DNA of 4,109 nt from a virus (IMGVR_UViG_2663763227_000006), one strand, 5' to 3'. Shown: positions 1-4,109, numbered from the stretch's first letter. Program-made: numbers and translations. The notes: generated from the letters alone by a model not told the origin.

Positions 1-141
1 TTCATTGGAGCACCTGTGTTGTTCTGAGGTGAGCATATCACCTCTGTTCAGGTGGCCAAATTCAGTGTGCCACTTCAGTTGTAATCTGATTTTGCTACAA
101 TATTCATGTTAGTTTCCTTGCATACGGTTACTGACATAGAG

Positions 142-185
142 GCCCGGTTTGTGTTCGCGCACTGCCGGGCTTCACTATTTTTATT
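142..185 (+). terminator. Rho-independent terminator-like hairpin on the + strand: GC stem GCCCGG (142-147) / CCGGGC (165-170) with an inner GTG/CAC pairing, followed by TTCACTATTTTTATT. It overlaps the stop codon of the Arc-like gene on the opposite strand.
   Basis: Read directly from the sequence. The U-rich tract follows the stem only on the + strand; on the - strand the stem is followed by TCTATGTCAG, so it is a poor terminator for the Arc-like transcript. Confidence 0.4.
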
Positions 186-354
186 GGGCATTATCTCTTT
201 CCTCTCTCAGGCTTTTAGCCAGTCGCTGCACAATCGCAGAGTTGATAGAAATTCCATCCATTTCAGCAACACGTCTAATCTCCTCCTTCATTCGCGCTGG
301 CAAACGAAGCTGGAAACTTTGACTTTTACGACCTGTGTAAAGCACATCTTTCAT
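181..354 (-). CDS. Arc-like ribbon-helix-helix transcriptional repressor, 57 aa (MKDVLYTGRKSQSFQLRLPARMKEEIRRVAEMDGISINSAIVQRLAKSLREERDNAQ)
   Basis: Start taken as the ATG at complement 352-354, preceded by GGGAGGA (complement 360-366) with a 6-7 nt spacer; the ORF track's longer 62-aa version begins at an in-frame GTG with no SD. The motif F-x-L-R-L-P ... V-A-E-x-x-G-x-S-x-N-S-x-I-x-Q-R resembles P22 Arc (FNLRWP ... VAEENGRSVNSEIYQRV), recalled from memory. Size matches Arc (53 aa). Confidence 0.7.
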   Translation of the reverse strand: MKDVLYTGRKSQSFQLRLPARMKEEIRRVAEMDGISINSAIVQRLAKSLREERDNAQ

Positions 355-375: not shown

Positions 376-400
376 ACCAACTTGGTTCTAGAACCAATTT
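376..400. promoter_or_regulatory. Candidate operator: perfect 16-bp palindrome TTGGTTCTAGAACCAA (382-397) overlapping a second palindrome ACCAAcTTGGT (376-386). The half-site TTGGT/ACCAA occurs four times in the intergenic region (376-380, 382-386, 393-397, 425-429).
   Basis: Palindrome verified base by base. It lies between two divergent RHH repressor genes and overlaps the -10/TSS region of the predicted leftward promoter. RHH repressors bind tandem symmetric sites as dimers of dimers (established for Arc and Mnt). Confidence 0.55.
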
Positions 401-423
401 AACACCATTTATTTTGATGTCAA
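396..423 (-). promoter_or_regulatory. Predicted sigma70 promoter for the Arc-like gene: -35 TTGACA (complement 418-423), 16-nt spacer ending in TGT (extended -10 TG), -10 TAAATT (complement 396-401); predicted TSS near 388-390, inside the palindrome.
   Basis: Consensus -35 hexamer and extended -10 read on the minus strand at correct spacing, about 35 nt upstream of the Arc-like RBS. Confidence 0.4.
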
Positions 424-465: not shown

Positions 466-786
466 ATGAGCAAGTTCCCTAGTCATGAAATGGATAGGTT
501 CAATATCAGGCTTCCTGCAGGAATGCGGGATGCTATAGCTGAACGAGCAAAACGTAACGGCAGATCAATGAACTCAGAGATTGTTCAGATACTGGAAGAT
601 GCCTTGAATGCAGAAAATACACTCGGGGAAATAGCAGATAAAATCAACAGCGTCTCGGTTCCGCTAAATGTTGATGCGCTAGTTCAACTTCAAGCCCAGG
701 TTATCGCCATGCAAAAAGAAATACAGGAAAAGTTCAGAGAGCAGAACGAAAAGTTGAGAGAACTGCTAAACAAAAAACCCACCTGA
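466..786 (+). CDS. Mnt-like ribbon-helix-helix repressor with a C-terminal coiled-coil extension, 106 aa
   Basis: ATG 466 preceded by GAGG (458-461). N-terminal DRFNIRLP ... AKRNGRSMNSEIVQILEDAL closely parallels P22 Mnt (HFNFRMP ... ANGRSMNSELLQIVQDAL), recalled from memory. The C-terminal 50 aa are heptad-like (LVQLQAQVIAMQKEIQEKFREQNEKLRELL), consistent with the Mnt tetramerisation helix. AGG, AGA and ATA codons suggest foreign origin. Confidence 0.8.
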   Translation: MSKFPSHEMDRFNIRLPAGMRDAIAERAKRNGRSMNSEIVQILEDALNAENTLGEIADKINSVSVPLNVDALVQLQAQVIAMQKEIQEKFREQNEKLRELLNKKPT

Positions 787-1473: not shown

Positions 1474-1701
1474 GTGAAGCGATGGTTCCTCATAATTACT
1501 GCTTTCGCGATCATTTACACTATTTTCCCTGCATTAAAAGCACCAATGCAAATAATTTCACTAGCAATAATTGCGATTAGTGCTTTCATTGTAGTGGCTG
1601 TACTTGTGTTTAAGATTTTAAATTTTTTAGTTTGGCTATCAAAAGATGATGGATGCAAAGTTTATCAAGAAAAAGAAGGCAAAATAACCAAAGGTGACTA
1701 A
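1474..1701 (+). CDS. Small membrane protein with two predicted transmembrane helices, 75 aa (VKRWFLIITAFAIIYTIFPALKAPMQIISLAIIAISAFIVVAVLVFKILNFLVWLSKDDGCKVYQEKEGKITKGD); GTG start
   Basis: Consensus SD AGGAGG (1463-1468) five nt before GTG 1474. Two hydrophobic stretches (WFLIITAFAIIYTIF and IISLAIIAISAFIVVAVLVF) followed by a charged tail. The long track ORF from ATG 1258 is rejected because its first half is antisense to the HExxH gene. Confidence 0.5.
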   Translation: MKRWFLIITAFAIIYTIFPALKAPMQIISLAIIAISAFIVVAVLVFKILNFLVWLSKDDGCKVYQEKEGKITKGD

Positions 1702-3388
1702 CTGTCACTAGCGAGCCATGTAATAATCCCCGTGCGGGCAATGGTTTTTGCTTCATCTGTTGATAAGGTTTTCTCCCATCTCTTAAATGCCCCAGATTGC
1801 ATCAGTTTCCTTTCTATTACGCGTCTCACTTCTGCTCTGTCTACTGGTGCGTTTTGCAGGCGAAATAGCATTAATTTAAACTCAGGAGAAGACAGTAGAG
1901 CATCAGCAGCCTTTATCCTGCTTGTTTTCCCTGACATCAATGCGGACGTTATCACCCCTGTTGCACCTACACCAGGAAGACCAGATAAGCTTGTAATACC
2001 TTCCGCCGCAGCAGCTTTTGAGGCTATTCCATAAATTTTTGCGAGACTACCCTTTTCTTTCAGAAAGTTATTAACTTGCTGATCCACAAGACTACTAGCA
2101 TGCTGCTTACCAGTATTGAGTCTATTCATAGCCTTAGCTGCTTGATAAATCGTATCAAGGCGCTTTGATGCATCTGTGCCAATAGCATCACGGAGAGCCT
2201 TCATATTGGCCCCATTGCGTGACATTCCGTTATACCATTTTACAAATCCATCAACTCCTAATTGCTGACCAGGTGATTTGGCATAGCTGGTAAATGCTTT
2301 ATTCATTGAGGTGAGCGCAACTTCCTGCCGCATATCCTTTGGAATTGACTTCATTAATTGCCTAAAGTCACCACCGTTTCCTTTTGCCATATTAACAACG
2401 GCACTTTCAACTTTTGGAATTGCTGATTGCTGAAGTTTTCTACCCAAGACGGTTACAGCATCATCTTCAATGGATTTTCGTTTTTTTACCAACTCCTTAC
2501 CAAGCGTCCATAATTCCCCTGCGCCATATTTTTCTGCAACAGCCTGTTGGTCATCTGTTATGGCTGCATATAACTTTTTAAGAACACCTGTTTCTTCATC
2601 CTTGAATGGGCCAGAGCCTTTGCCAATAGCTTGTCCAACCTGCTTTCTAGCGAGATCTAAACGCCCATACGTTGGCAAGGTGTTTGGATCAAGTCGGTTC
2701 AATGTCCGCTTCATTATTGGAGATAATTCATCAATTCCACCTATGTCATCAGCAAAATCCTCTAAAAAATTCAATGTATTAGTTGCCTCAATCCGGTCTC
2801 TTACAGGTACCTTTTCGGCAATTTTGTTGTAGATGTTATCTGACTGATTTTGTAATGATGAAATGGTTTTATCAAAATTATCTGCAAGCCTGTCAGAAAC
2901 CAGTTGCTTATCAAGGTTTCCCCCAAATGAAGTTATCATTTCATCAGCTTTTCTTCCTAATTCAGTAATAAAACGCTTATGCGCCTCACTAATCTCTGTT
3001 CCAGGGAGACTTGCCACTGCATTATCAAGAGCCCTGACAGCAGGATTATTAGAGATCATGCCTGGAGTGGCATAATTTTCCAGTTCTAGCTCACGAATAG
3101 CATTTATCGCGTTAAAATCAGGATTAACTTCATCGGCGAAATCTTGAATAGCTCGTTGCCCACCAATAAATTTATTATCCATTGCGCCAGCAGCTTTCTT
3201 TAACGTTGCTTTAGATGATTTACTACCCATCCCTACGGATGAGCGATAAATATCTCCGGCACTATTTTTAATTTTTCCTGCAATCTTCCCAAGCGCTGGA
3301 CCAACAATCTCGGCTACAGGGCCAGCCACAGCGCCAATAGCAGCGCCGGAAGCAACATCGCTATTTGTTCCATTGGCTACAATAGCCC
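1698..3388 (-). CDS. Large hypothetical protein, at least 563 codons, 5' end interrupted by the IS629-like insertion. Gly/Ala-rich N-terminal part of the fragment, then a long mostly helical K/E/Q/A-rich body. Tentatively a phage virion protein (ejection-protein-like or tape-measure-like).
   Basis: The reading frame stays open upstream of the track's GTG at 3329 and runs without any ATG/GTG/TTG or SD through 3388 into the IS terminal repeat, stopping at 3414-3416. So the true start lies beyond the IS. Function is inferred only from composition and from position relative to the immI-like module (P22 order: gene 16, sieA, mnt, arc, ant). No sequence identity to a named protein is claimed. Confidence 0.75.
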
Positions 3389-3442
3389 TGAACCGCCCCG
3401 GGAATCCTGGAGACTAAACTTCCTGAGAAAGAGGTAAACAGG

Positions 3443-3769
3443 ATGACTAAAAATACTCGTTTTTCCCCCGAAGTCCGTCAACGGGCAGTCCGTATGGTTC
3501 TGGAAAGTCAGAGCGAATATGACTCACAATGGGCGACAATTTGTTCCATTGCTCCAAAGATTGGCTGTACGCCGGAGACTCTGCGTGTCTGGGTTCGCCA
3601 GCATGAGCGGGATACCGGGGGCGGTGATGGAGGGCTCACCACCGCTGAACGTCAGCGTCTGAAAGAGCTGGAACGTGAAAATCGTGAACTGCGCCGCAGT
3701 AACGATATCCTTCGCCAGGCTTCCGCTTATTTTGCGAAGGCGGAGTTCGACCGCCTCTGGAAAAAATGA
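3443..3769 (+). CDS. IS629-family transposase OrfA (helix-turn-helix and leucine-zipper part), 108 aa
   Basis: The protein [23 protein letters not shown]...[22 protein letters not shown] is recognisable as IS629 OrfA. An RBS GAGG lies upstream of ATG 3443. Confidence 0.95.
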
Positions 3770-4109
3770 TGCCACTGCTGGATAAGCTGCGTGAGCAGTA
3801 CGGGGTCGGACCGCTATGCAGCGAACTGCATATTGCCCCGTCAACGTATTACCACTGTCAGCAACAGCGACATCATCCGGATAAACGCAGTGCCCGTGCG
3901 CAGCGCGATGACTGGCTGAAGAAAGAGATACAGCGCGTATACGATGAAAATCACAAGGTATACGGTGTGCGTAAAGTCTGGCGTCAGTTGTTACGGGAAG
4001 GTATCAGAGTGGCCAGATGCACTGTGGCACGTCTCATGGCGGTTATGGGACTTGCCGGTGTTCTCCGGGGTAAAAAGGTCCGCACTACCGTCAGCCGGAA
4101 AGCCGTTGC
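3766..4109 (+). CDS. IS629-family transposase OrfB (DDE catalytic part), N-terminal 114 codons only; 3' end outside the window. Expressed in this family as an OrfAB fusion by -1 frameshifting.
   Basis: Frame -1 relative to orfA, starting ATGATG at 3766 and reading [75 protein letters not shown]..., as remembered for IS629 OrfB. The A6 run at 3761-3766 lies in the orfA/orfB overlap. Not in the ORF track because it runs off the end. Confidence 0.9.

Follow-up and report, generated by a model that had tools for sequence, protein, structure and literature searches.

Genes and features of the window

The window, that is, the whole 4,109-nt stretch of viral DNA that was analysed (IMGVR_UViG_2663763227_000006), encodes two Arc-domain proteins, as found by a Pfam search. 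Its genes and larger elements are as follows.

1–77, minus strand: terminal 77 bp of an IS3-family insertion sequence (IS), which cuts ant and replaces the -35 region of the sar-like promoter
78–107, minus strand: remnant of ant (antirepressor), consisting of an ATG (complement 105–107) and nine further codons (MNIVAKSDYN)
181–354, minus strand: arc-like repressor gene, 57 aa, ribbon-helix-helix (Pfam Arc PF03869, E = 9e-12)
396–423, minus strand: Pant-like promoter for arc-ant (TTGACA, 16-nt spacer, TAAATT with TG ahead), from a promoter scan
466–786, plus strand: mnt-like divergent repressor gene, 106 aa, ribbon-helix-helix (Pfam Arc PF03869, E = 1.6e-20)
1698–3388, minus strand: gene for a gp16-like injection protein, its 5' end truncated by an IS
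3389–4109: second IS3-family element, which cuts the gp16-like gene at 3389; RefSeq annotates the identical element as IS3 family transposase

The same arc-like ORF is annotated by RefSeq in Escherichia coli 55989, and the Arc protein of the window shares 38% sequence identity with P22 Arc. The mnt-like gene is located where mnt is found in P22. The Pant-like promoter, with TTGACA at 423–418 and TAAATT at 401–396, agrees in position with Pant/Oarc of P22. The arc/mnt control region (368–437) contains a near-palindrome at 370–409, centred on TTGGTTCTAGAACCAA, and a second inverted repeat (368–384/421–437), both of which overlap the Pant-like promoter; these palindromes are probably the Arc and Mnt operators. 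A plus-strand ORF of 84 aa (106–360), which runs antisense to arc and crosses the terminator described below, was treated as spurious.

The arrangement is that of the P22-type immI module (mnt, arc, ant and sar), with divergent ribbon-helix-helix genes, a shared operator/promoter region, and arc followed by an antirepressor gene that is intact in relatives and of which the first 10 codons alone are left here. Small genes common to P22 and HK620 are found near 770–1100, a span that is about 96% identical to the orf59a region of P22. Terminator-like hairpins, reading on both strands, follow the mnt-like gene (776–795) and the orf59a-like gene (1070–1089). Further along, a minus-strand ORF of 121 aa (1078–1443) without a match in Pfam includes an HExxH-like motif (HECAHM), and a hydrophobic plus-strand ORF of 75 aa (1474–1701) occupies the position of sieA in P22; both are annotated merely as hypothetical proteins in E. 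coli 55989.

The second IS, which we take to be IS629/IS1203-like, contains orfA at 3443–3769 and an ALIL frameshift pseudoknot at 3724–3840 (Rfam RF01497, 120 bits). Two IS insertions within 4 kb suggest a decaying prophage, and an IS load of this kind is characteristic of Shigella or of E. coli rich in IS. The window is an immI-like "ant moron" of a P22-like prophage of E. coli/Shigella type that is in decay; PMC2629481 describes this context for P22-like prophages.

Truncation of ant by an insertion sequence

In intact relatives, the gene behind arc carries the Bro-N and P22_AR_C domains of antirepressor families, in agreement with the ant-like gene that the initial annotation had placed there. 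The homologue in E. coli 55989, where the intact module spans 2,672,299–2,673,604 of NC_011748, is 208 aa long, contains both domains and starts with the same codons as the remnant in the window. The minus-strand ribosome-binding site AAGGAA (complement 114–119) and the ATG that it serves (complement 105–107) are both present, with TTCCTT and CAT read at those positions on the plus strand, and a purine run resembling a Shine-Dalgarno sequence lies at a like distance from the ant ATG in the relatives examined. The 10-codon ORF that had been reported behind this site likewise ends as described, with TCA read at 75–77.

About 4000 E. coli genomes carry copies, annotated as 'IS3 family transposase', that are 100% identical to positions 1–76 of the window, and homology to intact ant loci begins at 77/78. 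The exact junction between IS and ant had no match among GTDB representative genomes or among the complete E. coli genomes of the collection searched. Two other copies of this IS share the sequence ...CACTTCA with the window and diverge beyond it; the IS therefore ends at position 77. The terminal TGA of the IS (complement 75–77) makes the stop after ant codon 10. This element is presumably IS911-like. Its orfA starts at complement 3–5, so that the transposase reads leftward; in another copy (locus L089), RefSeq starts the transposase CDS at the equivalent position, where it reads MKKRN.

The initial annotation had left it undecided whether ant was degenerate, leader-coupled or rearranged. Truncation by an IS3-family element bears out the view of a damaged gene, and the leader-coupled option does not hold. 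The 10-codon ORF was rejected as a leader peptide, being ant cut by the IS that ends at 77. A further ATG (complement 34–36), which had been noted as opening a frame that runs off the left edge, was rejected as a continuation of ant because it lies inside the IS and is hence IS sequence.

A promoter-like element within the first codons of ant

The sequence elements that had been reported between 93 and 185 are confirmed to be present, with one change in the extent of the hairpin that is described in the next section. These elements, together with the site on the opposite strand that they would face, are listed here.

93–101, plus strand: Psar-like extended -10 element TGcTACAAT (hexamer 96–101), in ant codons 3–5
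108–181, plus strand: predicted sar-like antisense RNA of about 70–75 nt, its start placed by homology to P22, and the span backed by the fold and by covariance models
108–135, plus strand: stem-loop 1, with a stem of 108–113 (GUUAGU) and 130–135 (ACUGAC) and a 16-nt loop (114–129)
114–119, minus strand: ant Shine-Dalgarno sequence AAGGAA, 6 nt upstream of the ant ATG, the predicted target of the loop of stem-loop 1; read from the sequence
139–173, plus strand: terminator hairpin with a 10-bp outer and a 4-bp inner stem (RNAfold, -22.4 kcal/mol)
174–185, plus strand: U-rich tail ACUAUUUUUAUU, in which UUA at 181–183 is the complement of the arc stop codon

The extended -10 element is read at 93–101 exactly as initially annotated. 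The surrounding sequence of the window, TTGCTACAATATTCATG, matches the Psar/start region of P22, TTGCTATACTATTCATG, at 15 of 17 positions. In 50 of the 52 distinct ant 5' ends compared, a TAnnnT hexamer stops 6 nt short of the predicted RNA start, and in the remaining two it is shifted by 3 nt; TGn is found ahead of the hexamer in 30 of the 50.

The hexamer is written into the ant reading frame in a restricted way. Its T(-12) falls on the third base of ant codon 4; in the ant 5' ends that bear the hexamer, this codon is GTA (25), ATA (16) or TTA (9) without exception, and no other Val, Ile or Leu codon is used. Its T(-7) corresponds to the first base of codon 3, where serine is always encoded by AGY (31) and never by TCN. 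In this way ant codon 4, at which rare codons ending in A are used exclusively, holds the T, A and T positions of the -10 element. The restriction at codons 3 and 4 falls on synonymous sites, and the constraint therefore acts at the level of DNA rather than protein.

The -35 position of the window (73–78) is CTTCAG, which is IS sequence and matches TTGACA at one of six bases; TGGAAG of intact relatives and GTGTTA of P22 each match it at three of six. Since a poorly matching IS sequence now stands at -35, the sar-like promoter may be weakened in the window. Extended -10 promoters generally tolerate a poor -35, and the sar-like RNA may still be made despite the replacement. In P22, convergent transcription from Pant is said, after work by Liao et al. 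in 1987, to interfere with Psar.

A simple consensus scan for promoters and terminators flagged neither element at 93–185. When applied to P22, the same scan detected Pant and Pmnt but missed the established Psar and tsar; because these authentic elements were also missed, the silence of the scan on 93–185 carries no weight.

Predicted fold of the putative antisense RNA

The predicted 5' end of the RNA is G108, which is placed by homology to the annotated start of P22 sar and adjoins the ant start codon, and the RNA is predicted to end within the U tract, near 177–182. The RNA between 108 and 181 folds with a predicted energy of -33.3 kcal/mol (RNAfold). Stem-loop 1 contributes a helix of -9.4 kcal/mol (RNAfold) whose loop contains the anti-Shine-Dalgarno sequence UUCCUU at 114–119. 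A GC-rich hairpin at 142–170 followed by a U tract at 171–185 had initially been annotated. The GC-rich core is present, but in the RNAfold prediction the hairpin reaches further, over 139–173, with 171–173 belonging to the stem and not to the U tract. The U tract is set 4 nt away from the terminator stem, and the TTTTTA motif of the tail is invariant or nearly so among relatives.

The plus strand of the region 106–190 folds at -35 kcal/mol (z = -5.6), better than any of 200 dinucleotide shuffles, whereas its complement reaches only -22.8 kcal/mol (z = -2.6). The element lies between arc and ant and reads in the opposite direction to these two genes. It consists of two stem-loops, with the anti-Shine-Dalgarno sequence in the 5' loop and a terminator hairpin at the 3' end, in agreement with the Rfam consensus structure of sar (RF00262), and it is complementary to the region of the ant ribosome-binding site and start, base 108 abutting the ATG at complement 105–107 without covering it.

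Relationship to P22 sar and to other small RNAs

In the P22-pbi record, Psar lies in the first codons of ant, sar begins at the base that adjoins the ant ATG and reaches the arc stop, and tsar is at its 3' end. The layout of the window is colinear with this annotated locus. The window and P22 RNAs are identical at 50 of 79 aligned positions (63%) and have the same two-hairpin fold. Both have a 6-bp 5' stem enclosing the anti-Shine-Dalgarno sequence (GUUAGU/ACUGAC in the window, GUUGGU/ACUGAC in P22), a linker of 3–4 nt and then a GC hairpin (about -22 kcal/mol) whose tail runs over the arc stop. They also share the promoter-like core TTGCTAyAmTATTCATG within the first codons of ant and a common TTACTGAC motif, and the RNA predicted for the window would, like sar, start beside the ant ATG and be about 70 nt long. 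The two differ in the spacer between arc and ant (73 nt in the window, 68 in P22), in the ant Shine-Dalgarno sequence (AAGGAA and GGAG, respectively) and in the terminator, which in the window has an interrupted stem of 10+4 bp as well as the longer loop and the better U tract of the two. Additionally, the Ant of relatives is a 208-aa protein with Bro-N and P22_AR_C domains, whereas P22 Ant has 300 aa (903-nt CDS), and the ant frame is open through the spacer in the window type but not in P22.

A search of the window with the Rfam sar model RF00262 gave no match at E ≤ 10, whether 600 nt or 91 nt were searched, and the element thus falls outside the gathering threshold of the family (43 bits); P22, as the positive control, scored 96 bits. 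Relatives that were fetched through their Arc proteins scored 53.4, 48, 47.8, 42.9, 38, 34.8, 30.7, 30.7 and 28.9 bits at the same position, and these graded scores form a continuum leading toward the window type. A covariance model (R1) was built from 16 sequences, namely P22 and 15 related junctions of types scoring at least 28.9 bits, with none from the window's own 85% identity cluster. Its best match in the window is full-length, at 108–184 on the plus strand, with 38.7 bits (rough E = 1.3e-7); the runner-up has 8 bits. A second model (R2), which has the window among its seed sequences, scores 99 bits at 108–184. The window element lies outside RF00262 as the family is now modelled, but by such transitive evidence it is a homologue of sar.

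The relatives are mosaics and form bridges from one type to another: one has the 5' domain of the window with a different terminator (L069), another a KP12-type 5' domain with a window-like terminator (L052), and a third a P22-like terminator (L080). The SPN3UB-, KP12- and Oslo-type immI modules of siphophages and podophages contain sar-like elements in the same position, with the same two-hairpin plan and mosaic relatedness. These elements are not annotated in the corresponding records, and several of them, unlike the window type, reach or come near the Rfam threshold.

In Escherichia phage JEP4 (L007), a window-type sar-like element and ant start are found at 1480–1800 beside a very different ribbon-helix-helix gene, whose product shares 22% sequence identity with the window Arc. 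The module of RNA and ant start therefore recombines independently of arc.

Apart from chance microRNA matches, the Rfam search of the window returned a weak match to SymR (RF01809) at 105–176 on the plus strand (21.8 bits, E = 0.016 to 0.11). SymR, too, is a two-hairpin cis-antisense RNA (about 77 nt) and lies over the ribosome-binding site of its target. Its gathering score, however, is 61, and no symE is present here, the neighbours being arc and ant. Membership of the SymR family was rejected on the score and the context, and the resemblance is one of shape. The c4 RNA of the immI region of phages P1 and P7 is also a small RNA that prevents synthesis of an antirepressor (Ant) by pairing near ribosome-binding sequences. 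Unlike sar, c4 is processed from its target's own transcript and acts on separate complementary sites, with no convergent cis-antisense gene.

Conservation and covariation among related loci

Three scans of IMG/VR with Arc alignments yielded 240 loci, which contain 88 distinct arc-ant spacers in 17 clusters. Model R2 has a full-length match directly after arc, on the opposite strand, in 88 of 88 representative loci with distinct spacers; this and the other comparative counts refer to sequences that are phylogenetically non-independent.

The terminator was assessed in a structure-blind MAFFT alignment of 58 junctions. All 522 cells of its 9 outer pairs are paired, and 47 cells show double changes, compared with 15 in shuffles; none of 500 shuffles reaches 47, and slid-partner controls score far below the terminator helix. 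RNAalifold recovered the terminator from this alignment but not stem-loop 1, which is misaligned by MAFFT because its loop lengths vary. Per-sequence folds and a model-fitted alignment were therefore used for stem-loop 1.

When folded singly, each of the 33 distinct 5' domains forms a helix of 5–9 bp with the anti-Shine-Dalgarno sequence in the loop. These helices start 0–3 nt from the P22-equivalent 5' end, and that of L084 is interrupted. The 33 domains contain 15 different combinations of arms, for example GUUAGU/ACUGAC, GUCGA/UCGAU, GUCGA/UUGAC, AUCAGU../..ACUGGU and GUUGGUU/AACCGGC. In the model-fitted alignment, which leans toward structure by construction, all 6 pairs of stem-loop 1 show compensatory changes; the two helices together are 96.9% paired, 11 of 15 pairs have a compensatory change, and the overall covariation is 0.421, compared with 0.234 in shuffles.

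The folds also differ between strands. Stem-loop 1 is more stable on the plus than on the minus strand in 33 of 33 distinct sequences, by a mean of 4.6 kcal/mol, an advantage that arises from G-U pairs; plus-strand G-U pairs are common in both helices. Taken together, the covariation, the strand preference and the codon restriction in ant show purifying selection on the promoter and on both helices of the predicted plus-strand RNA gene.

The ant frame in the arc-ant spacer

The minus-strand ant frame of the window is open through the whole spacer (108–191) and is in frame with an ATG at complement 189–191. This ATG overlaps the arc stop and has a purine-rich GAGGAA ahead of it, inside arc. Spacers of 70, 73 or 76 nt, lengths that differ by multiples of three, are found in 62 of the 88 distinct relatives, and in the same number a stop-free frame is open through the whole spacer. 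Every spacer of these lengths has an in-frame ATG or GTG that overlaps the end of arc, at -11 or -8 (-17 in JEP4).

Alternative explanations

The open frame raises the question of whether the 73-nt spacer is instead the 5' coding part of a longer ant that starts at complement 189–191, with its conservation being that of a coding sequence. Such an explanation would fit the start codons just described and the distribution of stops: across the spacer, 38 of 45 distinct relatives and 13 of 17 clusters have no stop in the ant frame, as against 9 and 14 relatives, and 3 and 6 clusters, for the other two frames. It would also agree with the annotators of Oslo, KP12, SPN3UB and ST11-VIM1phi8.1, who start ant there. 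Against it, 6 of 8 substitutions among the aligned window-type variants would change the amino acid if read in that frame, some of them radically (Cys to Pro, Arg to Trp), and paired changes are compensatory, as in L011. Moreover, the P22-type spacers and those of 72 or 75 nt contain in-frame stops or have no start, yet they keep the Shine-Dalgarno sequence, the ATG, the promoter and the helices, and both PGAP and the P22-pbi record start ant at the internal ATG with its Shine-Dalgarno sequence. As an explanation of the conserved spacer, coding is therefore very unlikely. A long, arc-coupled isoform of Ant is possible as at most an added layer, which would not replace the RNA gene. There is some chance, although we would not expect it, that in the window type the spacer is not intercistronic and that a long arc-coupled Ant isoform exists, with the sar-like RNA controlling two modes of ant initiation. 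If true, the terminator hairpin would be embedded in coding sequence, and the locus would have a control layer that is absent from P22 itself.

The remaining alternatives accept the hairpins and dispute their strand or their partner. Every helix of the plus strand also exists in its complement, and the minus strand has a fold of its own (z = -2.6), so the hairpins might serve as leader or attenuator structures of the ant mRNA, with no plus-strand RNA being made. Against this, the G-U pairs of the plus strand become C-A mismatches on the minus strand, where stem-loop 1 is weaker in all 33 sequences and the hairpin is followed by UAUGUCAGUAACC, with no U tract; conservation at synonymous sites of a -10 hexamer that faces the plus direction would also be left unaccounted for. 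We consider an exclusive role in the mRNA improbable to a high degree. It is harder still to credit that the hairpin and U tract merely terminate a convergent plus-strand protein-coding gene to the left, with no antirepressor behind arc, an arrangement that the initial annotation had named among the outcomes that would refute its reading. No point in its favour was found: the nearest plus-strand gene in E. coli 55989 ends at position 2352 of L002, about 1.7 kb to the left, the immediate left neighbour in intact relatives is ant on the minus strand, an antirepressor gene, and that of the window is an IS with a leftward transposase. A chance meeting of a promoter-like hexamer and a hairpin, for which the negative consensus scan could be cited were it not equally blind to authentic P22 Psar and tsar, deserves practically no weight. 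The fold is far below that of shuffled sequences (z = -5.6), and chance is excluded because all 88 distinct junctions of related arc-ant loci keep this arrangement, with covariation, in the same location.

Proposed function of the sar-like RNA

The initial annotation had proposed a plus-strand sar-like RNA of about 75 nt. Colinearity with P22, the graded Rfam scores of relatives, the match of R1, covariation, and conservation of the -10 element at synonymous sites are all consistent with this prediction, and together they support reading 93–185 on the plus strand as a diverged homologue of the P22 sar RNA gene, likely to specify a sar-like antisense RNA. Its transcription, its exact ends and its repression of ant are what we infer from the analysis.

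In the proposed mechanism, a sigma-70 extended -10 promoter inside ant would fire toward arc, and a plus-strand transcript would start at about G108, the base adjoining the ant start codon. The product would be an RNA of about 70–75 nt: a 5' stem-loop would display the anti-Shine-Dalgarno sequence, and an intrinsic terminator behind it would place its U tract over the arc stop. This RNA would be perfectly complementary to the ant leader, and its 5' hairpin would present UUCCUU to the ant Shine-Dalgarno sequence AAGGAA. In mRNA made from Pant or the late promoter, the resulting duplex would cover the Shine-Dalgarno sequence and the stretch between it and the start codon, and translation of the antirepressor would be blocked. 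According to PMC11016777, PMC12111858 and PMC13397905, P22 sar limits the synthesis of antirepressor (ant). The account of the P22 mechanism used here draws on how P22-pbi is annotated, on the consensus in Rfam and on secondary citations, namely these three papers and PMC2629481.

The reading as a whole, a diverged sar homologue in an immI-type module whose predicted RNA would repress ant as in P22, is in our judgment quite probable. In the window itself, the antirepressor circuit is dead and an orphan antisense RNA gene is left. The RNA gene (78–192) is identical to that of an intact relative (L009); because ant is truncated, the RNA would have no antirepressor to control in this genome.

Implications for the sar family

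The sar type of RNA is already known from P22; what is new here is a diverged member that is missed by RF00262. The understanding of the immI circuit is unchanged, and the member found in the window will not surprise a specialist. The analysis shows that the sar antisense-RNA family extends far beyond what the curated Rfam model covers. In the genomes sampled, of podophage type and of siphophage type and from Escherichia, Salmonella and Klebsiella, practically every arc-ant pair has a sar-type gene with it (88 of 88 distinct junctions), and the promoter of this gene is written into codons 3–4 of ant through the choice of rare codons. These results are usable for the annotation of prophages and for rebuilding and widening RF00262.
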